From: Candidatus Eiseniibacteriota bacterium | GTDB taxonomy: Bacteria > Eisenbacteria > RBG-16-71-46 > SZUA-252 | Direction: 5' to 3' | Length of the DNA stretch: 17,469 bases | Assembly (NCBI GenBank): GCA_031370645.1 | Contig: JANMQV010000120.1 | Span: forward strand, 1 to 17,469 | Part shown: positions 2,727 through 17,469 of the stretch, one piece after another | How the letters are laid out: the number at the start of each line of letters is the position of its first letter | How positions within the stretch are numbered: position 1 is the stretch's first letter | Notes under the pieces: model-generated | The model's input: only the letters and a program-made list of their open reading frames with translations | Told to the model about the DNA's origin: nothing | Databases searched by the model: none | Program-made: the position numbers and the translations under genes

Positions 2727-3253
2727 GAAGATCCTCCCGTAATGTTTTTGGCGCGGGCCCCGCGTCATCCCGGCGAGGCGCGACGCAATCGGCGCGCTTT
2801 GCCGGGTTGGCTTGACCCAAACCTCGCTGCCATCATGCCGGATCGCCGCGAATCCAACAAGGCGCGGCGCGCTAGCCGCAAGGCGCTTTGTACGGCCTCC
2901 TTAAGTCGCTCCGGTTCGATCGCCGCCACTCCCTCCGTACCATTGCGCGCGACGCGACGGCGGCGGGGGATTGGGCATTATCCGAGTCCCGCCTCAGTTC
3001 TGACGGGAGCCGCCAAATCGGAGGCGGTTGATTGTAGACTCTCCCGGAGCCGTTCGGGGATGAACCCCGCGGAAATCGAAGTTCAGCGAGCGATCAAGAG
3101 GGGTGGGGGCGCATGGGGCGCGGTACTTGAAGGGCTCAGAGAAAATGATCGACCGCTGACCGTCACTTCTTTGCTTGGCCTCAGGATGGGCTCAGGCATG
3201 CGATGCAGTGTTGTAGGTAAGGCGAGTCAGGTTCATTCCCTCCGGGTGCTTGC

Positions 3254-3287
3254 GGCCGTCGCCGGACATCCGCGTCCGGCGACGGCC
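3254..3287. terminator. Perfect 14-bp GC-rich hairpin downstream of the Gln-rich gene (terminator or stabilising stem)
   Basis: GGCCGTCGCCGGAC-ATCCGC-GTCCGGCGACGGCC, about 20 nt past the stop at 3306. No clear U-tract. Confidence 0.5.
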
Positions 3288-3305
3288 ATTCCTGATCAAG
3301 CGCTG

Positions 3306-4178
3306 TTACAAATGGATGCTGATCGCAAGCTGTACGTCCGGGTATTGTTCGCTTAGCAGATAGTATCCGCCTTGCGACTCGACGACGGTGACATAGTCCG
3401 TGTCGTACCAGTCGTCACCCCAGTATTCAGGCACCGGGTCGAGCATGGTGAACCAGTAGCCATCCGAGTAGAACTCCGGATAGCTGTCGACAATTCTTAT
3501 CTGGAAGCTGGAGAGGTGGAAGCGGTGCGGCCGGCCAAAGTAGAGAATGAACTGCCGGTTCGGGATCCGATATCCGGTATAGCCGCCCCGTTGGGACCAC
3601 GTCCGATGCTGTGAAGTCCAGTTATTCGCGCGGTAACGTGACCAGACCCGCTGTTGTTCGACGCGCGTCGAAGCAGTGCGCGGTTGAGCGGGGTACTGGG
3701 TTACGCGGCGAGTCGGAGACGTCGACCGACTCTGAACGCCTGCCGTGGATTCGCGCCGCGGATTTCGAGCTGTGGCCCTGGACTGCTGGCGCTGGGCCAT
3801 GGGCTGCTGCGTCTGCGATGGCCTCTGAACTCGTGCCTGACGACGCGACTGCGCCTGCCGATCCTGAGCGGGGGGCTGCTGCTGCCGGTTCTGCGCCGAG
3901 GGCCGCTGCTGCTGCCGGCTCTGATCTGCGGTCCGGTGCTGCCGGTCCTGCGCCGAGGGTCGCTGCTGCTGCCGGCTCTGCTCCGCGGGCCGCTGCTGCC
4001 GCTTTTGTGCCGAGGGCCTCTGCTGCTGCTCCTGCTGTTGGGGTTGCGTTGCCTGGTCTGGGTGCTTCGCGGAGCCACCGTCGTGACCTCTCTGGTTAGC
4101 TTGGGATCCACTAACCGAAGCGAGCCCGAATACTAGAATTGTGGCTGTCGTGCGAAGCAGTGCTTTTGGATTCACCAT
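3306..4178 (-). CDS. Secreted Gln/Arg-rich low-complexity protein with aromatic C-terminal domain (loosely RcnB-like)
   Basis: Signal-peptide-like N-terminus (MVNPKALLRTTATILVFGLASVSGSQA), disordered Q/R repeats, then W/Y-rich domain (HRTWSQRGGYTGYRIP...FGRPHRF...YWGDDWYDTDYV). Start at 4178 chosen for GGAGGG spacing. Confidence 0.8.
   Translation of the reverse strand: MVNPKALLRTTATILVFGLASVSGSQANQRGHDGGSAKHPDQATQPQQQEQQQRPSAQKRQQRPAEQSRQQQRPSAQDRQHRTADQSRQQQRPSAQNRQQQPPAQDRQAQSRRQARVQRPSQTQQPMAQRQQSRATARNPRRESTAGVQSRSTSPTRRVTQYPAQPRTASTRVEQQRVWSRYRANNWTSQHRTWSQRGGYTGYRIPNRQFILYFGRPHRFHLSSFQIRIVDSYPEFYSDGYWFTMLDPVPEYWGDDWYDTDYVTVVESQGGYYLLSEQYPDVQLAISIHL
3856..4026 (-). repeat. Three imperfect 57-nt coding tandem repeats (19 aa, QQRPSAQxRQxxxxxQxRQ)
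   Basis: GCCGAG anchors at 3895, 3952 and 4009 (57-nt period). Peptide units QQRPSAQKRQQRPAEQSRQ / QQRPSAQDRQHRTADQSRQ / QQRPSAQNRQQQPPAQDRQ. Confidence 0.85.
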
Positions 4179-4249
4179 GATCATCCCTCCCATTCACATT
4201 CCCGGGCGTAGCTCCGGGCGCATTTAGAACCTCATCCACATTGAGTAAG

Positions 4250-4264
4250 GCATCTAGCGTGCCA
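4250..4264 (-). promoter_or_regulatory. sigma54 (-24/-12) promoter for the Gln-rich secreted protein
   Basis: Minus strand TGGCACGCTAGATGC = TGGCAC-N5-ATGC with exact GG-N10-GC spacing, about 70 nt upstream of the start codon. Confidence 0.65.
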
Positions 4265-4335
4265 TGAGGCGAGTTCTTGCAAAGGCTGCGGTGAGCGGGC
4301 GTTGCGGAAGCAGGCTGGTTTCGAGCGGGCCGCAG

Positions 4336-4364
4336 TTGTAAATCTTGCTGGTCGGGCGTTACAA
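4336..4364. promoter_or_regulatory. Candidate enhancer-binding-protein site (inverted repeat)
   Basis: TTGTAA-N17-TTACAA, an AT-rich inverted repeat 70-100 nt upstream of the sigma54 motif. Confidence 0.3.
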
Positions 4365-4402
4365 GTCGGCAGCAGCGGGGCGGGTCGTGGGCTGAGCGAT
4401 CG

Positions 4403-4858
4403 TCAGCGAATCGCCAGCCACGTGCGTGTGGGAAGAACCTCCTCAGTGAGCACCTGGACACGACGGAGCTTCCAGCCATTCACCGTACGGAGCCACCCGT
4501 ACCGGCCCCGGCGCCGGACGGTCCACTCCCGGCGAACGATGCCGAAGGCGCGCACTTGGAACGTCGCGCGCTGCTGCAGGGTCTCGGTAGCGATTCCGGC
4601 ACCGCCGTCCCACTCGAGGGTCTCCCGGCGAAATTCCATTTCGACGGAGCGCATTCGAGCGAGCTGAACCCGCAGGTCATGCGCCAACTCGTCGCGGCCA
4701 ATCGTTCGGCCGTCCCCCTGCGTGTATTCGAGCTCAGGGTGGAAAAGGTCGATGTAAGCGGAGGCATCGCGGCGCGCGTACGCTTCGTGGGCGCGTTTGT
4801 GCGCGGCGACGAACTCCGCGGCGAGAGAAGCCGGCTCCGCGTCTGCGTTCAGGTCCAA
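4403..4858 (-). CDS. NTF2-like / SnoaL / DUF4440 family protein
   Basis: Typical pattern: helix AHEAYARRDASAYIDLFHPELEYTQGDGRTIGRDE, beta strands, C-terminal W..T.NGWKLRR. TTG start; exact start uncertain. Confidence 0.75.
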   Translation of the reverse strand: MDLNADAEPASLAAEFVAAHKRAHEAYARRDASAYIDLFHPELEYTQGDGRTIGRDELAHDLRVQLARMRSVEMEFRRETLEWDGGAGIATETLQQRATFQVRAFGIVRREWTVRRRGRYGWLRTVNGWKLRRVQVLTEEVLPTRTWLAIR

Positions 4859-4961
4859 CCTCTTTCTGAAAGTCGTTGGGCACGGCGTTAGTTACCGCCC
4901 GTTCCCGCATTTTCACACGAGCCGACAGGATCGGATAGGGGAGTCCTCCGAGCGCTCTCGT

Positions 4962-7172
4962 TCATCGGTACCCTTCATCCGTCTCAGCCGGCTCCTCCTG
5001 CATCAGATCCATGCCTGCCTCTGCACCTTCGCCTTGCAGATAATCCGTAATGTGCTGTTCCATTTGCGAGGGGAAGGACGGGGGAGGGCCCATGAGTTGG
5101 TCGGCGTACACCTTCAGCATCACTTCCTCGAATACCGGAAGGGCAACCCGCCCGCCGACCTCTTTCGGGCCCAGTGATCGGTTGTCGTCGAATCCGACCC
5201 GGACGGCGACCGTGATGCCGTCAATGCCGTACGTCGAGCCGACGAAGAGCGCATCCCTGAAATCGCTGGTCGTGCCCGTCTTGCCCATCACCGGAATCGG
5301 GAACGCCGGCGAGTCGAGGGCGTGAGCCGTGCCCGACGGAATTCGCACGACGCCCCGCAAGCCTTCTTGGATCATCAAGAGCGCATCGCTATCGAGCGAG
5401 ATGGGCACGTCAACGCGTTGGTCCTCCTGCCCCTCTCCCTCCTGGCCACGGGCGATGTAACGAATCACGCGGGGCTGCACAAGGACGCCGGACGCGATCG
5501 TACGGTAGACCGTCGCCAGCTCCAGCAGAGTCATTTCAGAGGCGCCCAACGCCGTCGGCGCGTAGCGGTGAAGTGGCGTCTCCACGCCGAGGCTGCGCGA
5601 CGTGGCCAGGACGCTGCCAATCCCCACCTGCTCGGTGATCCAGATCGCGACCGTGTTCCTCGACTCGGCGAGGGCCTGCCGGATCGGGATCATGCCCTTG
5701 TAGCGGCCATCATAGTTCGAGATCCACTTCACACCATGCGAACCGTCCGGCACGCTGATGGGCTCGTCGGGCACCAGAGTGTCGAGCGTGAAGTCGCCGT
5801 CCAGGAAGGCGGTCAGGTAGACGATCGGTTTCATGGCGGAACCCGGCTGCCGAAACGAGTCCCTGGCGCGGTTGAAGTCCCGGTAGGAAGCCTCGCGGCC
5901 GCGATAGAGCTTCCGGCCGCCCGCCTCGGCGAGTACGGATCCGTCTCGATTCCTCAGGACGACGACCGCGCCCTGAGTCATTCCACGTGCGCTCAGGTGG
6001 CGCTCTTCGTACCGGTCCAGGCCATGCTCCAACGCCTCGCTTGCAATCTGCTGCACGCGGGCGTCGACCGTCGAGTAGACCTGAATGCGCCCCTGCAGAA
6101 GGTCGTCGATATCAAGGCCGCCGTGATGGGACGCCAGATCGCCAATAACGTGTTCCACGACCGCGGCCGACTGTGTGCGCCGAGAGATCGGACGAACAAC
6201 GGTAGGAAACGGGCGCCGGCTCGCGGCGGTTAATTCGGCGCGAGATATGAATCCGTCCGCGGCCATAAGCGCCAGAATCTGATTTCGGCGATGGAGGATC
6301 GGCGCGGTTGCCTTCGCCGTGGGCGCATAGTCGCGCGGAGCCTTGGCAATGCCCGCTAGAAGCGCCGCCTTGTCGGCGTCCGCGGCCGTGAACGTGGAAA
6401 GCGGCCGGCCGAAATAGAACTCCGCCGCCCTCACAAAACCGTACTGCCCGTTGCCCATGTACACGTAGCTCGCGTATCGGGCCAGAATCTCTTCCTTCGC
6501 GCGACGCTTCGATCCGAACTGTTCGCGCATCTGCTGTTCGAGCCACACAGAAAGCCGGATCTCCTCGCACTTCCGGAAAAGCATGTTCACGTTGCGCTCG
6601 CCGATCAGGGCTGACAGCGCTCGGGGACTGACGCCAGCGTAGCGGAGCGTGTAGCTGTTTTCCTGGGATGTCAGACGCCGCAGAAAGCAACCGCGCACGA
6701 GCTGCTGGGTGATCGTGGAGCCGCCCTGCGGGAGAATGGCCCGGCCGCTCTCGTTGTCGTGGCGTCCCGCCGAGGCGAGCCGCTCCGCGAAGGCGCCGAG
6801 CCTGATCTTGGAGAGGACGCGCGGAAAACACGAGTAGTCGACGCCGTTGTGGGAGAAGAAGTGCTTGTCCTCCGTGGCGAGGATCGCGTCACGAACGATC
6901 GGAGGGAGCGCGCCATACGGCGCGTTCTGCCGGTATTCCCGCGCGAGCGCGATGAGCGTCTGGCCATTGGCGTCGTAGACATGCCCGATCGCGGGGAATT
7001 CGAAACGCGTGAACGGTCCCAAGTCCGGCAGGTTGCCGCGATCCAGGTAGGTGTGCTGAAGCGCGCCGAGCGTGAAAAGACTCGCGCCGGTCGACATGAG
7101 GAGCGCGATCGCGGTGCCTGCCAACAGGACAATCGTGCCGGCAGTCCAAGGTCCGCCGGCCGGCCGAATCAT
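4962..7172 (-). CDS. Class A penicillin-binding protein (PBP1A family; transglycosylase + transpeptidase)
   Basis: N-terminal TM segment; GT51 motifs EDKHFFSHNGVD, GGSTITQQL, RKCEE, KEEIL; transpeptidase motifs SxxK (QPGSAMKP), SxN (SRN), KTG (GKTGTT). Start ATG 7172 has GAGGA upstream; 7211 is an alternative. Confidence 0.93.
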   Translation of the reverse strand: MIRPAGGPWTAGTIVLLAGTAIALLMSTGASLFTLGALQHTYLDRGNLPDLGPFTRFEFPAIGHVYDANGQTLIALAREYRQNAPYGALPPIVRDAILATEDKHFFSHNGVDYSCFPRVLSKIRLGAFAERLASAGRHDNESGRAILPQGGSTITQQLVRGCFLRRLTSQENSYTLRYAGVSPRALSALIGERNVNMLFRKCEEIRLSVWLEQQMREQFGSKRRAKEEILARYASYVYMGNGQYGFVRAAEFYFGRPLSTFTAADADKAALLAGIAKAPRDYAPTAKATAPILHRRNQILALMAADGFISRAELTAASRRPFPTVVRPISRRTQSAAVVEHVIGDLASHHGGLDIDDLLQGRIQVYSTVDARVQQIASEALEHGLDRYEERHLSARGMTQGAVVVLRNRDGSVLAEAGGRKLYRGREASYRDFNRARDSFRQPGSAMKPIVYLTAFLDGDFTLDTLVPDEPISVPDGSHGVKWISNYDGRYKGMIPIRQALAESRNTVAIWITEQVGIGSVLATSRSLGVETPLHRYAPTALGASEMTLLELATVYRTIASGVLVQPRVIRYIARGQEGEGQEDQRVDVPISLDSDALLMIQEGLRGVVRIPSGTAHALDSPAFPIPVMGKTGTTSDFRDALFVGSTYGIDGITVAVRVGFDDNRSLGPKEVGGRVALPVFEEVMLKVYADQLMGPPPSFPSQMEQHITDYLQGEGAEAGMDLMQEEPAETDEGYR

Positions 7173-7615
7173 GCGTCGTTCCTCTTTGATGAAGCGAGAC
7201 ACCGTGCGCACGGCCAGCGGCGAAAGCGAGCAGCCCCAGTGTTGCTATTACAAAGCGATCTGGAACGAGCGCCGGCATCGCGCACCACTACGGTTGACGG
7301 GGTATCACGTTAGCGCGGAACCGATCGCTGATCGCGACCAGCCGACCCTACCCACCAGGGAGGTATGGCAAGATCGAGGCCAAACCCGACGCCTCGCCGG
7401 CCCGGGCGAACGAGGCTCACTGAGTGTTCGTGCGGCGGCGGCAAGGTACCGGGCACGCTCCATCCCGGGTTTGAAGTTTTCGACGTCATGTGTGCAAGAC
7501 GTTCCGGCGCTGCCTCTCCCTTCGGACTAGCGCTCCCCGCCGATTCGACCCACGTTCCGTCCTAACACCCTTCCCATCAGGGCGTTGGTCGGGTGTGTCC
7601 GAGATGTGGGCGCCG

Positions 7616-7630
7616 TGGCATGAATCTGGC
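7616..7630 (+). promoter_or_regulatory. Candidate sigma54 promoter for small basic peptide
   Basis: TGGCATGAATCTGGC with GG-N10-GC spacing, about 27 nt before a perfect SD. Confidence 0.45.
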
Positions 7631-7673
7631 CCCGCATTCACCCAGGAGAAGCAAGGAAGGAGGTGAATTCAAC

Positions 7674-7790
7674 GTGAAGAAGAGCAGAGGCGGTAGGATG
7701 ACTGCAGCCAAGGTACGTGCAGCCAAGAGACCTGGTGGTAAGGGTCTTGTAAGCAAGCGTGCAGTGGGTCGAAGGATCAAAAAGACCTGA
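7674..7790 (+). CDS. Small very basic protein (38 aa, MKKSRGGRMTAAKVRAAKRPGGKGLVSKRAVGRRIKKT)
   Basis: Extended SD AAGGAGGTGA immediately upstream of GTG 7674, K/R-rich with no acidic residues, followed by a terminator hairpin. Confidence 0.7.
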   Translation: MKKSRGGRMTAAKVRAAKRPGGKGLVSKRAVGRRIKKT

Positions 7791-7842
7791 GCTTAGTTTC
7801 AGTGGCACTTATGACAACGGGTCGCGGCAAGGCGATTCGAGT

Positions 7843-7878
7843 AGCCCCAGGGGAATGCCCCCTGGGGCTTTCGGCTTT
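7843..7878 (+). terminator. Rho-independent terminator between the small basic gene and convergent creD
   Basis: AGCCCCAGGGG-AATGC-CCCCTGGGGCT (11-bp perfect stem) followed by TTCGGCTTT. Confidence 0.75.
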
Positions 7879-7934
7879 ACCGGTCTAGGTCGTCATTCGC
7901 GGCCTTCGCCACCTCTGCCTTCGCGTGGCTGCGC

Positions 7935-9317
7935 TCATGTCGGAGGTAGCCCACCGCCCGGCCTTTCCGGGGTGTTTGGCGAAGACTCCGAGAGCCGGTA
8001 CCAGTCGATCCGCCGCGTGAGGACCATCACGATCGCAAGTGCGGCAAGGAGGAGGACAGAGCCGAGTAGGAGCGCGTAATCCTTCGATTGAAGAATGACG
8101 TAGAGGAAGCCATAGAGCGCCCCCAGTAAGCCGGCGAATGCTCCCGCTCGCGCCATACTGCGAAGCACGTGCCCCACGTAGATGGCGGAGAGGCCGACGC
8201 AGGCGCCACTCGCCACGATGTAGGCGGCGGCGAATGGCAGATGCTCCGAGAGTGAGACGAGGAGCAGGAAGAAGAGCGCGAGCGCGGCGCCGCAGAGGGC
8301 GTACTGGATGGGATGCACCTCGATCCGGCGAAGGACCTCGAAGAGAAAGAACGCAACGAAGGTCAGGAAGACGAAGAGGAAGCCGTACTTCACCGCGCGC
8401 TCGGACTGTTGATACACGTCGACCGGCTGAACGAAGCGAACGCCGAGCTCGGCATCGGGGAATCCCTGCCCGTCGCCGCCGGCGTCGGGCCCGGCTGGGA
8501 CGCTTCGGTTTGAGCTGTCCCCAATCCGTGTCATGAGGTCGTCTATGCCGGTCGCGAAACGCGAAAGCTTCCACCGCGCCTGGAAGCCCGCGGCCGAAAC
8601 GCGGCGTTCGTCGGGGAGAAACGCGCCCACGAAGCCCGGATGCGGCCAATCGGACGACAGCTCGACGTCCGTGACGGCACCGATGGGGAGAAACAGGAGG
8701 CGGTCGGTGCCCACCAGCTCGAGGCTGGCGTCGACCGTCATGCGCCGCCCGGGGGCACCCGAGGGAAGCGGGGCTCTGAACCCGTGCTTCAGCGCACCCA
8801 GACCGGTGCCGAGGCGCAGCTCCTGGATCGCACCGTCGAGTTTCACTTCGGGAATCGCGCGGATGCCCCGCGGATCGGAGATGCTGAAGACGACTTCGGC
8901 TCTCGGCTCCTCCAGCAATTGGCGGTTGTCTAATCCGAGCCCTGGCGGCAAGGTGAACGTGGCGGAGAACCCGGTAGTCGCCCGGAAGAAGGGCACGCGA
9001 TAGATGCCGCGCTGCCGTGTCTCAACAGTTGCGTTGGACCGGAGCCGGAGCGAATCCGGTAACAGCACCTCGATGCCCTCCCTCACCTGATCCGCTTCGC
9101 CCTTCAGAGCCGTCGGCAGGCGCTCGCGGTAGCGTACGACGAGAAGGGGACCCACGATGGTCTGAGCCCTGGCGGTGCTCTTTGCGACCTCGGCCGTTAC
9201 TGTGTCGCGATAGTGGGATCGCTCCTTGACGATTCCCCAGATCATGGCAAGCGGCACGATGAACGCTACCGCTACGCCGGCCACGATGAACGCTTTCAGG
9301 GCCACATTTGTCCGCAT
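7935..9317 (-). CDS. creD: Cell envelope integrity inner membrane protein CreD
   Basis: N-terminal TM + ERxxY, QTIVGP, RGIYRVP, ISDPRGI, SDWPHPGFVGAFLP, PVDVYQQSERAVKYGFLFV, HPIQY...LALFFLLLVSLSEH, EDY-like KDYALLLGS, TRRIDWY. Confidence 0.95.
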   Translation of the reverse strand: MRTNVALKAFIVAGVAVAFIVPLAMIWGIVKERSHYRDTVTAEVAKSTARAQTIVGPLLVVRYRERLPTALKGEADQVREGIEVLLPDSLRLRSNATVETRQRGIYRVPFFRATTGFSATFTLPPGLGLDNRQLLEEPRAEVVFSISDPRGIRAIPEVKLDGAIQELRLGTGLGALKHGFRAPLPSGAPGRRMTVDASLELVGTDRLLFLPIGAVTDVELSSDWPHPGFVGAFLPDERRVSAAGFQARWKLSRFATGIDDLMTRIGDSSNRSVPAGPDAGGDGQGFPDAELGVRFVQPVDVYQQSERAVKYGFLFVFLTFVAFFLFEVLRRIEVHPIQYALCGAALALFFLLLVSLSEHLPFAAAYIVASGACVGLSAIYVGHVLRSMARAGAFAGLLGALYGFLYVILQSKDYALLLGSVLLLAALAIVMVLTRRIDWYRLSESSPNTPERPGGGLPPT

Positions 9318-9372
9318 TCGAAGGTCCGCCCTTTCTTCAGATCGCTAGGGGGCGCGCACTGTTTCGGTGAAG

Positions 9373-9416
9373 TACTTTATATAACAAAGTATAATGCCCG
9401 AGAAAATGCCCGTCAA
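9373..9416 (-). promoter_or_regulatory. sigma70 promoter of creD with overlapping palindromic operator
   Basis: -35 TTGACG (9411-9416), 17 nt, -10 TATACT (9388-9393). Palindrome TACTTT-N7-AAAGTA (9373-9391) covers -10/+1. Confidence 0.8.
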
Positions 9417-9639
9417 GGGCCCGAGTCCGACGCCCGAGAGCGCTCGACTCCCCCGTGGCATTGGGCACCTCGCGATCTCATCCAAGCGGGGATATTGACC
9501 CGCACGACGCCCTTGGACATTATCGTGGGGAGTTGAGGAGGGGATCGAGCTTCCCTCCTGACGTCGGGGGAGGATTCCTGGCGGCGAACAGGCGAACAGG
9601 CAGTCCGTTCGTTGGACGAATCCAACTGTGGGAGCCTTG

Positions 9640-10926
9640 ATGTCGAACGAGTTGTGCTTCGTAGTGGTGCCCTTCGGCCGAAGGCAAGGTCCTACAGGCA
9701 CCTGGATCGACTTCGATAGCCTCTACCAAGATATCATCGAACCCGCCATCAAACACGCTGGCTTCGATGCCATCCGCGCGGAGCAGGGGGATGTACTCGG
9801 CGGTGTCACCCACAAGCCGATGTCTGAGCGGCTGGTCCTGTGTCACGTTGCTATTGCGGACCTGACAGTGGCCAGCGCCAAGGTCTGCTACGAACTCGGC
9901 GTTCGACATGCCGTCCGCCCACACCGCACCGTGATGCTCTTTGCCGCCGGTGGGTGTCTGCCGTTTGATGCGGAGGACCTTCGCGGCATTCCATACCGAC
10001 TCGGAGCCGACGGCAAGCCGAAGGATGTTGACGGCATGCGAGAGGCGATCGTCGACGCGTTGCGCGCGGCCCGGTCTGCCGACGCCGATAGCCCCATCTT
10101 CCAGCTCGCCAATGGTCTGCCGGCACTTCAACTCGATCACCCGAGAACGGACGTATTCCGCGAGAACCTGGGGGACAGCCAAGAGATGAGGATGCGCCTT
10201 GCGCAAGCGAGAACTCGGAATGTGGGCAGTCTCGAGGGGCTCCACGCTCTCGAGGCTGAGCTGGGAGACGTCTCCGATGTGAAGGTCGGAGTCGCTATCG
10301 ATCTCTTCCTCTCCTATCGCTCCATCGAGGCCTGGAAGGACATGATTCGGCTAAAGAATCTCCTGTCCCGACCCTTGCAGGAATCCGTGATGATTCAGCA
10401 GCAGTTCGCCCTGGCGCTCAATCGCGACGGGCGAGGCGAGGACGCCGAACTCGTCCTGCTTCAGCTCCTCGCGCGGCACGGACCATCCAGTGAGTCGTAC
10501 GGTATCCTCGGCCGCGTGTACAAGGACCGCTGGATTAATGCGTTCCGAGCCGGCGAGACATTCCGTGCGCAGGGGTTGCTGGACGAGGCGATAGACGCGT
10601 ACTTGAGTGGATTTCAGACGGACTGGCGCGATGCATACCCGGGGATCAACGCGCTAACGCTGATGGAGATCCGCGATCCGCACGACGGCCGCAAGCGGGA
10701 AATTCTCCCGGTCGTCAAATATGCCGTGACGCGTCGCCTCGCCTCCGGCAGCCCGACCTATTGGGACCACGCAATGCTTTTGGAGCTGGAAGTGCTGGGT
10801 GGTGATGAAGCCGCTGCGGCGGATGCTCTATCGACTACCCTAAGAGAGGTCCGCGAAGTCTGGGAGCCCGACACGACGGCCCTCAATCTGGGCTTGATTC
10901 GCGAAGCCCGCGCACGCCGGTCGTGA
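9640..10926 (+). CDS. Nucleoside 2-deoxyribosyltransferase-like (DRHyd) domain + DUF4071 / MAP3K TRAF-binding / TPR-S protein
   Basis: N-terminal CFVVVPFG...DFDSLY..IIEPAI...IADLT....VCYELGVRHA..LPFD; C-terminal LFLSYR, QQFALALNR, SSESYGILGRVYKDRW, AIDAYLSGF, YPGINALTL, YWDHA, WEPDTT..NL..I motifs. GGAG RBS before ATG 9640. Confidence 0.85.
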   Translation: MSNELCFVVVPFGRRQGPTGTWIDFDSLYQDIIEPAIKHAGFDAIRAEQGDVLGGVTHKPMSERLVLCHVAIADLTVASAKVCYELGVRHAVRPHRTVMLFAAGGCLPFDAEDLRGIPYRLGADGKPKDVDGMREAIVDALRAARSADADSPIFQLANGLPALQLDHPRTDVFRENLGDSQEMRMRLAQARTRNVGSLEGLHALEAELGDVSDVKVGVAIDLFLSYRSIEAWKDMIRLKNLLSRPLQESVMIQQQFALALNRDGRGEDAELVLLQLLARHGPSSESYGILGRVYKDRWINAFRAGETFRAQGLLDEAIDAYLSGFQTDWRDAYPGINALTLMEIRDPHDGRKREILPVVKYAVTRRLASGSPTYWDHAMLLELEVLGGDEAAAADALSTTLREVREVWEPDTTALNLGLIREARARRS

Positions 10927-10975
10927 ACCCCTCGGCAGGCGATCATCGACGGAGGCAGAACTGGCAAAGAAAAAG

Positions 10976-11380
10976 ATGAAACCGCAGGCGGGGGAACGTC
11001 GCAACGTCTTCATCAGTTTTGCCGATGAAGACGAGCCGATGGTCGACCTGTTACGCGGCCAAGCCCAGAGCGAGGACAGCGCTGTGGACTTCAATGATTG
11101 GTCGCTGCGTGCGCCGTTCGCCACCAAGCGGGCCGAAACCATCCGCAGGGGCATCCGCAAGCGCATCCGGCAGGCGTCCCTGACCCTTGTCTACGTGTCG
11201 AAACATACAGCCGAGAGCGAGTGGGTGAATTGGGAGGTTGAAGAGAGCGTCAAACTCGAGAAAAAGGTAGTCGGAGTCTACAAGGGAAAGATTCCAGGGC
11301 GACTGCCTCCCGCGATCAAGAAGCATAGGATCCGAGTCATTGCCTGGACCCACAAAGAGATCGCTAAGGCGCTGAAGTAG
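10976..11380 (+). CDS. TIR domain protein, MTH538/DUF1863 (ThsB-like)
   Basis: RRNVFISF..ED, DFNDWSL, IRKRIRQASLTLVYVS..TAESEWVNWEVEES...KKVVGV; the putative catalytic Glu in WVxWE is present. Confidence 0.88.
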   Translation: MKPQAGERRNVFISFADEDEPMVDLLRGQAQSEDSAVDFNDWSLRAPFATKRAETIRRGIRKRIRQASLTLVYVSKHTAESEWVNWEVEESVKLEKKVVGVYKGKIPGRLPPAIKKHRIRVIAWTHKEIAKALK

Positions 11381-11397
11381 GCGGCCGAGCGGGTGCG

Positions 11398-11433
11398 AGG
11401 AGCCCCAGCGGGATGACCCACGTGGGGCTTCCT
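11398..11433. terminator. Imperfect hairpin between convergent genes
   Basis: AGGAGCCCCA-GC-GGG-ATGA-CCC-ACG-TGGGGCTTCCT followed by GCTTT. Confidence 0.45.
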
Positions 11434-11465
11434 GCTTTGGGGCGCGAACGGTAGCTCTCGGCAAG

Positions 11466-12029
11466 TCACTCCGTCGGTTCTACGCCAGGACCGTTCTGCG
11501 CGCGCGCCGCGCGTCGAAACAACAACCCGGATCCGACAAACAGCATGGCGAAGAGCGCATTCAGACCAAACAAACCCAAGACACCGGAGGGTACCGGGGG
11601 CTTCCAGATCGTCAGCGCAATCACGGGGACCAACATTTGAGCGAGCGCTGTCGCGAACAACACGCGTGCCATCCCACGCGGCTCTAAGCGCACGATGGCG
11701 GCACCAATGAATCCGACGGCAAGCACCCCGATATACATCAAGTTAGCGGGGTTGTCCTCGTCCCCGATGATGCCGACGGCAAGATTCAGCCAGACGAGGA
11801 GGAGCGCTGCCGCGAGCGCCAGGCCGACGGCCGCTCGGTACGCGAGATTCCCCCCCTTCCTCGCTACCAGCTCATAGGTGAAACCAGCGCCTAACAGGAG
11901 GGCGCCGGCTACAACAAAATCAGCGAGGTCCCAGTTCACTTCATGGGTAAACTGCATCGCCAACAGGGGCAGCAGCAATAGGAACGCTGTCGTGAGCAGA
12001 ATGCGGATCATCGCTTTGTTTTGCATCAT
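11466..12029 (-). CDS. Hypothetical integral membrane protein (about 6 TM)
   Basis: LLLLPLLAMQFTHEVNWDLADFVVAGALL, YRAAVGLAL..LLLVWLNLAVGIIGDEDNPANLMY pattern with multiple hydrophobic helices. AAGGA RBS before ATG 12029/12026. Confidence 0.85.
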   Translation of the reverse strand: MMQNKAMIRILLTTAFLLLLPLLAMQFTHEVNWDLADFVVAGALLLGAGFTYELVARKGGNLAYRAAVGLALAAALLLVWLNLAVGIIGDEDNPANLMYIGVLAVGFIGAAIVRLEPRGMARVLFATALAQMLVPVIALTIWKPPVPSGVLGLFGLNALFAMLFVGSGLLFRRAARAQNGPGVEPTE

Positions 12030-12096
12030 GACGAATGTCGTCCTTTCTTCAAATCGGGATTCAGCCCCCAGCACACTTCACGCAACCTACACGAAG

Positions 12097-12140
12097 TACT
12101 TTATAACATAAAGCATAATCGCGAGGAAGGCGCCTGTCGA
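12097..12140 (-). promoter_or_regulatory. sigma70 promoter with the same palindromic operator as creD
   Basis: -35 TCGACA (12135-12140), 17 nt, -10 TATGCT (12112-12117). TACTTT-N7-AAAGCA at 12097-12115. Confidence 0.75.
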
Positions 12141-12196
12141 GCATTTTCACGGGCCCTCGCGCGTCACCATCACGTTCCCTGGCTTGAGAGTCGCGG
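12136..12196 (-). pseudogene. Ser/Thr kinase fragment (subdomains VIb-[22 protein letters not shown])
   Basis: Nucleotide alignment to the kinase at 17051-17111 (ccctcgcgcgtcaccat.acgttccc.ggcttgaga) with two 1-nt indels. Confidence 0.8.
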
Positions 12197-15229: not shown

Positions 15230-17469
15230 TCATTCCAGGACGCCCAGGCGGCGGAGGAGATCAATCATCCTCGGGTCCGAGCGGATGGTTTGGAAAATAG
15301 GATCGTACGTGTGCCAGAGCAACCACTGATCGCGCTCTTCGTATGCACGCTCCAGCCACTCGAATACTTGGTCCACGCGGCCCAGACCGAGATGCGCGAT
15401 CGCCACACTGAGGGCGGGAACCCAACCGTGTTGGGCGCGGTCGTGCAGCATCGCGAGCTGGCCCTCTGCATCACTCCGCCGGTCCGCGAGAGCATACGCA
15501 GCGGCGAGATATCCGATCGCGTAAGGGCTCCCACCCGAGCAGCGCACCGCTTCTTCGAACGACCCAATTGCTTCCTCCCCCTTCCCAAGCGCGCCTGCGA
15601 CAATGCCGCTACCGAAATGCGGGAACCATGAGGTCGGGTCGATCTCCCGCAAAATCTCTAATTGATGCGAAGCTCGGTCGTAGTCGCCCAGCGCCCAGTA
15701 TACCCAGGCGAGGATGTAGTTCCAGAAGGCCGCCAGCGGATCCAGTTCGACAGCGCGCTTGGCGGCGACCACGGCGTCATCGGGTCGCCCAGAATAGAGC
15801 TCCACCTGCGCCAGCACGGCATAGGCGTGTCCCAGGTGCGGACCGACTTCGAGCGCTCGCATCAAGGCGGCTCGAGCTGCCGGCTGGTTCCACTCGTAGA
15901 GCATGTGGTAGACGCCAGTGAGGGTCCAGGCCTCCGCCAGCTCTTGATCGAGCGCCAGCGCTTTGGTGAGCGCGGCCTTTGCCTTCGGCCACGCCTCGCG
16001 CGGTGGGGTGGTGACAGCGCTCTCCGCGGCAAAGACGTCCGCCAGCCCGAAGTGCGCCGGCGCATAATTCGCATCAAGCTCAATCGCGCGTTCGAAGCAT
16101 TCCCGGGCCTTCTGCAGCCCCTCCGCCGTCCACTTCTGCCAGTGGTGCCGGCCCTTGAGGTAGAACTGATAGGCCTCGACGTTGAGGGTCGGCCGCTTCG
16201 CTATCGCCGCCTGCTCCTCGCCGAGCAAGTTCACTTTCAGCGCACCGGCAATCGCGAGCGCGATCTCGTCCTGGACTTGAAAGATGTCCTCGAGCTGACG
16301 GTCGTAGCGTTCCGACCATAGGTGGTAGCCGTCGGAGACCTTCACGAGTTGGACGGTGATCCGCACCCGGTTGCCCACCTTGCGGACGCTGCCCTCGAGG
16401 ACGGTGGCGACGTTCAGCTTCTGGCCGATCGTAGCGATGTCGTCGCTCTTGCCCTTGAACTGGAACGATGAAGTGCGCGCCGATACGCGCAGCCCCTTGA
16501 TCTTTGACAGCACGTTGAGCAGTTCGTCGGCGAGGCCGTCGGAGAAGTATTCGTCCTCCTCGTCGCGGCTGCGGTTGACGAAGGGGAGCACGGCGATCGA
16601 GGCAACTCTGCCCGAGGCCGGGTTCTCCGGCTTTCCGCGCTCCAAGTCGCGACGGATGGTTCGAAGCTCGTTCGACACATCGAGGGCCGTTTGGAAGCGC
16701 TCCCGCGGGTTCTTCTGCAAACATCGGCTCACGATGCGCCCGAGGTCGGACGGGAGATCGGTTCGGAGTCGGGCCAGCGGCTCCGGCGTGTCGCGGAGGA
16801 TGGCGTGACTTACGTCGATGGATGTTTCGCCGGTGAAGGGCCGGAGGCCGGTGGAGAGTTCGTAGACGATGATCCCGAGCGCGAAGAGATCCGATCGCGC
16901 ATCCACCGTCTCGCCGCGGATCTGCTCCGGCGCCATGTAAGGCACGGTGCCGAGCACCTGGCCCGCGCCCGAGATGGGGGACTCTGCCGTGGCGTCGATG
17001 GTGGCTCCAGGATCAGGCCCCTCGGTAACCGCCATTTTCGCGAGGCCGAAATCCAACACCTTCACGCGTCCCTCGCGCGTCACCATGACGTTCCCGGGCT
17101 TGAGATCGCGGTGGATCACACCGCGCTCGTGGGCGGCGATGAGGGCGTCGATCAAGGGGATCGAGAGTTCGAGCACACGAGAGAGCGGAAGCCCGCCGGG
17201 GGTGATGAGATTGGAGAGGGTCTGTCCTTCGACCAGTTCCATCGTGAGGAAACGGACGCCGTCCTCATCCTCGACCGAGTGGAGCGTGACGATGTTCGGA
17301 TGATTGAGCCCCGCGACCGTGCGCGCCTCGCGCTCGAAGCGGACCAATCTGTCCGGCGAAGTGGCCACCGCCTCAGGCAGCACCTTGACCGCGACTTCGC
17401 GGCCCAGGCGGAGATCCTTCGCGCGATAGACCTCGCCCATCCCTCCGGCTCCGAGGGGGCCGATGATCT
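15230..17469 (-). CDS. Hanks-type Ser/Thr protein kinase with TolB_N-like (SIAVLPF) domain and TPR repeats (5' end beyond window)
   Basis: Frame stays open to the window edge ([16 protein letters not shown]); [47 protein letters not shown] helices, DP.F..IRSDPR C-terminus. Confidence 0.96.

Follow-up and report, generated by a model that had tools for sequence, protein, structure and literature searches.

A probable type VIII Thoeris-like cassette of two genes in an uncultured sediment bacterium

Type VIII Thoeris, a defense system composed of ThsB and ThsI, was described by Yirmiya et al. (bioRxiv December 2025, 10.64898/2025.12.03.692087). In that preprint, ThsI is presented as a "CMP hydrolase" domain (with citation of MilB and DNPH1) joined to a TPR region that Burroughs and Aravind had predicted to act in TIR signaling. 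Two type VIII systems, one from Yersinia enterocolitica and the other from a Pseudomonas scaffold, are reported there to protect E. coli. The signal is canonical cyclic ADP-ribose (cADPR) in both tested systems; the type VIII TIR proteins expressed alone make it solely after infection, and cADPR supplied in the medium halts the growth of cells bearing a type VIII system. According to the same source, ThsI is at times found in an operon with the SLATT effector ThsH, and some Thoeris operons carry Cap9, Cap10, and Cap11 (legend of Fig. 6G). Here we analyze a pair of adjacent genes, termed A and B, on a contig of 17,469 nucleotides (nt) from a Candidatus Eiseniibacteriota bacterium (JANMQV010000120.1, assembly GCA_031370645.1; the whole contig is referred to as the window), which very probably belongs to this kind of system.

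A pair of the same architecture, BcTir/BcTpr of Bacillus cereus, was reported to defend against T phages (Liu et al., bioRxiv 2023, 10.1101/2023.05.26.542521). According to that preprint, the MilB-like head of BcTpr (residues 1-189), in which E86 and N82 are essential, acts as an NADase and produces a cyclic ADPR isomer; the dissociation constant of BcTpr for cADPR is 1.9 uM, and BcTir is inactive and in complex with BcTpr. The kind of system is thus already described, because both preprints report this architecture, and its mechanism is still disputed. In our literature search the name type VIII Thoeris occurred only in Yirmiya et al., TPR-S was not found together with Thoeris, and DUF4071 was not tied to defense among the matches listed. 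The supplementary tables of the two preprints may already list the clade of the window's pair.

Genes A and B lie on the same strand, separated by a spacer of 49 nt, at the coordinates given in an earlier note on this DNA. The features of the locus are as follows.

9495-9523, plus strand: promoter-like site, TTGACC, 17 nt, CATTAT (9/12 in a consensus scan; putative function); left edge of the conserved cassette
9640-10926, plus strand: gene A, thsI-like, DNPH1/MilB-like hydrolase head plus TPR-S/DUF4071, 428 amino acids from ATG (Pfam and ASK1 profile matches)
9640-10047, plus strand: hydrolase head (DRHyd) of gene A, residues 1-136 of the 428-amino-acid form, motif VASAKVCYELG (head profile against PDB)
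10333-10665, plus strand: TPR-S sensor repeats within gene A (PF20308, residues 236-346; same span in the genome search)
10937-10975, plus strand: spacer with an in-frame remnant, RRSSTEAELAKKK, of the N-terminal extension of Gly-tailed gene B relatives (translation compared with P0139 and P0189)
10976-11380, plus strand: gene B, thsB-like TIR, 134 amino acids, Glu in WVNWE (E87, codon 11234-11236; PF08937, PADLOC ThsB1)
11399-11436, plus strand: palindromic stretch past gene B, putative terminator (inverted repeat I3, 11407-11436; no call in the terminator scan)

We consider it probable that the two genes make up a self-contained anti-phage cassette of the type VIII Thoeris kind, which carries a promoter-like site of its own and which an uncultured sediment bacterium acquired horizontally. 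The proposal is based on the domains and the catalytic Glu of both proteins, the operon, its recurrence, the co-divergence of the two genes, and their patchy distribution. Defense, a cADPR signal, the binding of cADPR, and the need for the head Glu would hold for the window copy by analogy with the relatives described in the two preprints.

Domains of the two proteins and a predicted mechanism

The longest open reading frame (ORF) of gene A runs from a GTG at 9628 to a stop at 10926. The ATG at 9640 is the likely start, since the homologs (23 aligned) begin with MSNELCF at the matching residue. Pfam assigns to the product PF13281 (MAP3K_TRAF_bd, formerly DUF4071; 1.2e-40, residues 86-431) and PF20308 (TPR-S; 4.8e-25, residues 236-346), and the motifs FLSYR, GRVYKDRW, and DWRDAYPGIN of the TPR-S part are invariant among aligned homologs. 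No kinase match was obtained with Pfam, and the protein ends after the TPR part at 428 amino acids. Among the PADLOC 2.0 models only a weak TIR-effector match (E 0.0077) fell on gene A, and NCBIfam holds no model matching gene A or gene B. More than 4212 homologs of gene A were found, and comparison with relatives indicates purifying selection (ratio of nonsynonymous to synonymous substitution rates, dN/dS, 0.33-0.48).

No Pfam match was found for the head (residues 1-140). We therefore compared with PDB a head profile built from 29 heads of the window, metagenome loci, and plasmids; 12 of 13 matches were DNPH1/Rcl 2'-deoxynucleoside-5'-phosphate N-hydrolases, at E values of only 0.005-0.5. 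In this alignment the YELG of the gene A family falls on the YELG of DNPH1, the site of the DNPH1 nucleophile Glu; in gene A this residue is E89 counted from the GTG (codon 9892-9894). A language-model atlas gave nucleoside 2-deoxyribosyltransferase and DRHyd-ASK clusters (scores 0.84-0.89), which serve as leads only. The whole-protein family profile matches the ASK1 structures 8qgy (1.4e-13) and 5ulm (3.3e-12), with YHLG in ASK1 where the gene A family has YELG. From the DNPH1, atlas, and ASK1 matches, the description of gene A in the earlier note as DRHyd plus DUF4071/TPR-S with the YELG Glu kept, in the architecture of the ASK1 N terminus, is correct. The profile search suggested there recovered DUF4071 and the ThsB TIR family, and failed to return a Pfam family for the head.

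The product of gene B matches PF08937 (ThsB_TIR, 4.6e-21), PF13676 (2.9e-9), and ThsB1 of PADLOC 2.0 (2.6e-20), in agreement with its earlier assignment to the MTH538/DUF1863 TIR proteins with a WVxWE Glu. The Glu of WVNWE is invariant in 26/26 aligned homologs, and the motif is present in 119 of 120 listed homologs. Profile matches in PDB were 8fz9 (a 138-amino-acid TIR, 3.8e-18), which is the closest, and the ThsB structures 6lhy (2.4e-8) and 9b7d. Chain 8fz9_A, titled just "TIR", has the Glu of its WVPHEV aligned with the ThsB catalytic Glu. Gene B is under purifying selection as well (dN/dS 0.15-0.42).

In comparison with type VIII Thoeris, the window pair has a small ThsB-type TIR with its catalytic Glu adjoining an effector with a DNPH1/MilB-type head and the TPR of Burroughs and Aravind (TPR-S), in a recurrent two-gene operon. 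At the level of sequence, the link to the validated proteins is an indirect one, through a Pseudomonas plasmid protein of the same architecture as gene A (25% identity, full length). Gene A differs in belonging to a longer subfamily, in which the match to the ASK1-type PF13281 model extends over almost the full protein (86-431). With type I Thoeris (ThsB plus the SIR2-SLOG protein ThsA) the pair shares the PF08937/PADLOC ThsB1 TIR family and the logic of a TIR signal and a sensor-effector, but it has no adjacent SIR2 or SLOG, its sensor being TPR-S and its effector head of the DRHyd type. With the N-terminal regulatory region of ASK1/MAP3K5 it shares a homologous head plus TPR module; unlike ASK1, gene A carries no kinase domain, and where the bacterial protein has its nucleophile Glu, ASK1 has His.

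We slightly favor the following full chain of steps for the window copy. Phage infection would switch on the gene B TIR, and this enzyme would produce a cyclic ADP-ribose signal from NAD+. The signal would be bound by the TPR-S repeats of gene A, and binding would free the head at the N terminus, an N-glycosidase of DNPH1/MilB-like type. Using E89, the Glu of YELG, as nucleophile, the head would cleave the N-glycosidic bond of a nucleotide (NAD+ or a nucleoside or deoxynucleoside monophosphate), a cleavage predicted to starve the phage and arrest the cell. A predicted complex of A and B scored 0.00 in both runs and speaks neither for nor against binding. The earlier note suggested a Thoeris-like system with an NAD-derived signal produced by the TIR and with the DRHyd-TPR-S protein as its sensor or as the effector, and the two preprints on the same architecture support this suggestion. 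Only the phrase "without a Thoeris effector" is out of date there, since gene A is of an effector type, ThsI.

The findings on BcTir/BcTpr suggest a different assignment of roles, in which gene A is the NADase, its head makes a cyclic ADPR isomer that its TPR part binds, NAD+ is then depleted, and the TIR is a bound regulatory partner and not the maker of the signal. All of these steps were reported for the same architecture by Liu et al. (10.1101/2023.05.26.542521), where an N-glycosidase head with a Glu four residues past an Asn is likewise followed by TPR repeats and paired with a small TIR, and the NPNxxYE motif of plasmid homologs fits BcTpr N80-P81-N82...E86. We regard this assignment as unlikely for the window. 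BcTir is described as catalytically dead, whereas the window TIR keeps the ThsB Glu, and the presence of the motif in nearly all listed homologs argues for an enzymatic TIR; the loss of Glu in the window's clade affects the head and not the TIR; and the closest solved TIR, 8fz9, has an aligned Glu. The cADPR made by type VIII TIRs expressed alone, and only after infection, in the work of Yirmiya et al. (10.64898/2025.12.03.692087) argues in the same direction. If 8fz9 is BcTir, the statement of Liu et al. that the Glu is missing (K37) may reflect another alignment.

Recurrence of the pair as a mobile cassette

In the five related loci in which the region downstream of gene A is covered (L005, L006=L106, L007, L107, and L108; 70-78% protein identity in A), gene B directly follows in every case. 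The DNA of the cassette is 77-84% identical among these five other loci. Homology starts at 9467-9495 in the three loci that reach that far and ends at 11378-11384, at the stop of gene B, and the flanks are unrelated. As homology stops at these edges and the flanks differ, A and B form a cassette of 1.9 kb (approximately 9467-11384). One related copy lies beside a HEPN/nucleotidyltransferase (HEPN/MNT) pair and a TonB-dependent receptor. Percent identities of A and B to the window drop together over 13 loci (A/B 77/81, 74/78, 70/71, 56/55, 55/56, 52/51, 54/48, 48/48, 25/20), the pattern that would be expected of a jointly inherited pair. Additionally, 14 of 120 listed homologs of A are on a longest contig of exactly the same size as that of a listed TIR homolog.

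Gene A is present in 7 of 206 genomes of the phylum, including that of the window, in 1 of 40 other genomes of the family, and in 0 of 7 genomes of the genus. A profile search of the window's genome (95% complete) identified gene B as the only TIR and gene A as the only TPR-S protein. The sister species G002 has no creD, A, or B at the matching place. Its order is a class A penicillin-binding protein (PBP) gene (79% identical protein), a homolog of the window gene at 3306-4193, and the small membrane gene that follows the cassette in the window, with homology resuming at window position 11450. Judged by sequence comparison, the pair is accessory and horizontally acquired. The gene at 3306-4193 is on the opposite side of the PBP gene in the window relative to G002 (locus L102, contig C181; window 3248-7383 and 11450-12161 compared). 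The window holds about 4 kb extra (7384-11449, with small ORFs, creD, A, and B), and the stretch between the PBP and membrane genes is a variable spot. As a synteny anchor creD was discarded, with 0 of 7 genus genomes matched, and the PBP gene was used in its place.

In the wider family we examined 80 metagenome loci of the 51-59% identity tier, of which 76 were non-duplicate. A close relative of gene B adjoins A in just 6 of the 80. With a local TIR profile iterated over four rounds, a TIR-like ORF was found within 3 kb of A in 22 of the 76 non-duplicate loci, an approximate figure because the iterated profile may include false positives, and in 9 of the 19 that are flanked by 3 kb or more on each side. 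The density of TIR-like ORFs was 1.23 per 10 kb within 3 kb of A, compared with 0.32 per 10 kb beyond. Pfam alone placed a TIR in the directly adjacent same-strand gene at 12 of these loci, in one case with a match under the cut-off. According to Pfam on 97 neighboring proteins, TIR architectures beside A include small ThsB, TIR-nSTAND1-FGE, TIR-NACHT-TPR, TIR-HEAT, TIR-TGT, and pYEATS-TIR; SLATT/DUF4231 proteins are near A in three loci, and DUF4062 proteins in three. Paralogous TPR-S proteins also adjoin A, fused to patatin at six loci (L018, L051, L065, L067, L070, and L082, with one more at the second position), to an alpha/beta-hydrolase-group domain at five (L025, L031, L052, L073, and L086), and to CHAT at one (L012). 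Such loci apparently stack several effectors that have one type of sensor in common.

On plasmids, a TIR is located within two genes of A at 6 of 7 loci inspected. Among these cases are a mobilizable Pseudomonas plasmid of 9.8 kb, with A followed by a 134-amino-acid TIR beside toxin-antitoxin genes, and an E. coli IncP plasmid that carries A, TIR, TIR, and DUF4231. Gene order and sizes match those of the window on the Pseudomonas plasmid pA7J1 (A, 411 amino acids, 25% identity, E 6e-26; TIR, 134 amino acids, E 6e-8), and the pair is also present on plasmids of Acinetobacter, Vibrio, Lactiplantibacillus, and Rhizobium. The co-location of A and B in other genomes and on plasmids answers the neighborhood survey proposed in the earlier note, which had named the lack of such co-location as grounds for rejecting the system. 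The sole plasmid locus without a TIR is on an Aliarcobacter plasmid (L092), where a 223-amino-acid protein directly upstream of the A homolog (3318-3989) weakly matches nucleoside 2-deoxyribosyltransferase (E 1.1e-5, under the cut-off).

The nearest outgroup of the window pair is found in cassettes of the order TIR-TGT, OGG, QueC, ThsB, gene A, ThsB, the first ThsB of which starts with MGGGGG (L010, L011, L083, a Rhizobium plasmid, and L044, the last with an over-long ORF call). Contexts of the ThsH/SLATT type and of the Cap9/10/11 type are thus both seen around gene A homologs. In type IV CBASS, as shown by Wassarman et al. (2025), Cap9 couples a 7-deazaguanine base to the Gly2 residue of the cyclase. 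The window shares with the Thoeris operons that carry Cap9/10/11 (type IV CBASS-like priming) this outgroup relationship. Unlike these, it has no QueC, TGT, or OGG gene among the neighbors of A and B, and its order, A then B, is the reverse of that in the outgroup cassettes. The N terminus of gene B is MKPQAG, without MGGGGG, and the window ThsB has lost this tail. The 13 codons directly ahead of its ATG, RRSSTEAELAKKK, still match a helix that in relatives comes after the tail, and no ATG, GTG, or TTG lies upstream of gene B in the frame of this remnant. Cap9/Cap10/Cap11-like cassettes were located at L010 982-5602, L011 4740-9777, L044 956-7328, L083 263-3260, and L089 477-8139; in these the Cap10-like (TGT-like) part is fused to an extra TIR, and on the Rhizobium plasmid a SLATT gene is in the neighborhood of the cassette too.

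Drift of the head and points against the proposed system

Several observations weigh against the interpretation of the window locus as a type VIII Thoeris-like system with the chain of steps given above. Homologs of A also occur without a TIR: none is present within 3 kb in 10 of the 19 well-flanked metagenome loci, a copy of A at 47% identity in genome G028 has none within 1.5 Mb on its contig, and of 78 Tpr genes counted by Liu et al. (10.1101/2023.05.26.542521) 29 are alone and 28 are TIR-paired. The validated type VIII systems are from Yersinia and Pseudomonas, and the nearest plasmid pair among those compared (Pseudomonadota, on a Pseudomonas plasmid) is only about 25% identical to the window in A and 20% in B. 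The window locus is chromosomal and, by Pfam and PADLOC on its neighbors, not a defense island, the sole PADLOC match among them being a generic Ser/Thr kinase. Yirmiya et al. and Liu et al. differ on which protein makes cyclic ADPR. Finally, the active site of the head has drifted in the window's clade (at least 60% identity, n = 38). The head Glu is replaced in nine members (seven Ala, two Gln), and both residues of an Asn pair are kept in fewer than one-fourth. In the window motif VASAKVCYELG this phosphate-binding Asn pair of relatives is replaced by Ser and Lys; the spacing of the motif in Liu et al. puts the Lys, four residues before E89, at the place of BcTpr N82, which was reported to be essential. 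Constraint on the head is also weaker: of 64 head positions with 95% conservation or more in the outer tier, 31 retain 90% or more in the clade, compared with 75 of 96 in the TPR part, and dN/dS is higher in the head (0.43-0.61) than in the TPR part (0.22-0.43) in 6/6 pairs.

The drift would also fit a shift of roles in which the head has turned or is turning into a module that binds nucleotides without catalysis, as in ASK1, gene A is only a sensor or regulator, and the TIR is the sole enzyme, acting through NAD+ depletion or on an unlinked target. The next tier (54-59% identity), in which the motif is ANANVFYELG, keeps the Glu in 80/80 and the Asn pair in 78/80, compared with the loss of Glu in nearly one-quarter of the clade. 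Glu-less copies remain intact and TIR-paired (L107, paired with an intact TIR, and P0022, P0028, and P0031, for which pairing with an intact TIR is by coincidence of contig size), and the YHLG of ASK1 aligns with YELG. Against this, the Glu and the S-A-K-x-x-Y-E-L-G motif around it are retained by the window copy and by the eight relatives closest to it (79-85% identity), a pattern that looks like a changed pocket rather than decay; head dN/dS stays below 1; no unlinked effector is known; and the genome encodes no further TPR-S or TIR protein. We assign this shift a low probability for the window copy.

It is doubtful, though conceivable, that the clade as a whole forms a natural series in which a ThsI hydrolase head turns into a non-catalytic nucleotide-binding module while conservation persists in the TPR-S part and the TIR partner, leaving the TIR as sole enzyme and gene A confined to cyclic-ADPR sensing or regulation. 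If true, such a series would parallel the step that gave eukaryotic ASK kinases an inactive DRHyd-TPR front end. The drift of the head in the window's clade is the one feature that is apparently new here and worth the attention of specialists. The clade's variants with and without the head Glu, each TIR-paired, are material for asking whether ThsI needs its hydrolase, and could help to settle the dispute between the preprints on the maker and the user of cyclic ADPR. A type VIII Thoeris-like assignment of the window pair would extend a defense system validated so far from Pseudomonadota and Bacillota only to an uncultured sediment lineage, and would display a minimal mobile unit of 1.9 kb with a promoter-like site and two genes. 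The link to ASK1 may make these small bacterial proteins a tractable model for the binding of nucleotide ligands by the ASK1 regulatory region.

Surroundings of the cassette in the window

The window is a complete contig of 17.5 kb from a metagenome-assembled genome of 3.0 Mb (95% complete). Sequencing runs carrying its DNA are freshwater and other sediment metagenomes, with no RNA run among those listed. Genes A and B are flanked by the minus-strand genes creD (7935-9317) and a small membrane gene (approximately 11466-12029), and every other large gene of the window is on the minus strand; the earlier note called the two its only multi-gene plus-strand unit. The neighbors are pntAB, the class A PBP gene, creD, the membrane gene, and genes of the DUF1801 and DUF5674 families. 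The 16 neighboring ORFs contain no ThsA, SLATT, or CBASS family, consistent with the absence of such adjacent genes stated in the earlier note. In the same 16 ORFs, which set the scope of this search within the genome, there were no SIR2-SLOG ThsA, Macro-TM, or caspase-like effectors (type I/II/IV Thoeris). Rfam at gathering scores gave no RNA family in the window.

Two sequence stretches recur on both sides of the cassette. Positions 9369-9417, upstream of creD, are 71% alike over 49 nt to 12093-12141, upstream of the membrane gene, and 9327-9344 is 89% alike to 12039-12056 (18 nt). Both regions (9327-9417 and 12039-12141) are direct repeats with a promoter-like site on the minus strand, and both hold the palindrome TACTTTATATAACAAAGTA or a variant. 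The two genes also have the ribosome-binding stretch GAAGAAAGG in common, approximately 10 nt before each ATG. The operator that the earlier note had them share is borne out by these repeats, and creD and the membrane gene probably answer to one common regulator. We rejected the repeats as marks of cassette insertion, because the right-hand copy (12039-12141), which is also present in G002, is native to the membrane gene there and the homology of the cassette ends well inside the repeats.

The position of the cassette between two copies of one promoter/operator element, and neighbors that are not defense genes, would suit a housekeeping role in nucleotide signaling or stress, linked to the surrounding envelope genes (creD and the membrane gene). 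Eukaryotic ASK kinases use a homologous module in stress signaling. Such a role is nevertheless highly improbable. The cassette travels alone, its homology ending at its edges between differing flanks, with one relative beside a HEPN/MNT pair; its distribution is patchy; and mobilizable as well as conjugative plasmids carry the pair next to toxin-antitoxin genes. Defense was moreover shown experimentally for relatives, according to both preprints (10.64898/2025.12.03.692087; 10.1101/2023.05.26.542521).

The membrane gene (11466-12074, minus strand) was called as an ORF of 202 amino acids from a GTG at 12074. This call is probably too long; judging from the shared ribosome-binding stretch, the start is likely the ATG at 12029 (MMQNKAMIRILL...). 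Its product has no Pfam or PADLOC match. A Ser/Thr kinase-TPR protein is encoded at 15230-17440 on the minus strand, 4 kb from the cassette, and in genome G167 (L111, 12242-14536) it is 2 kb away. The PD-T4-6 models of PADLOC match this protein strongly (1e-85) in the kinase domain only, which may reflect a mere general likeness among kinases.

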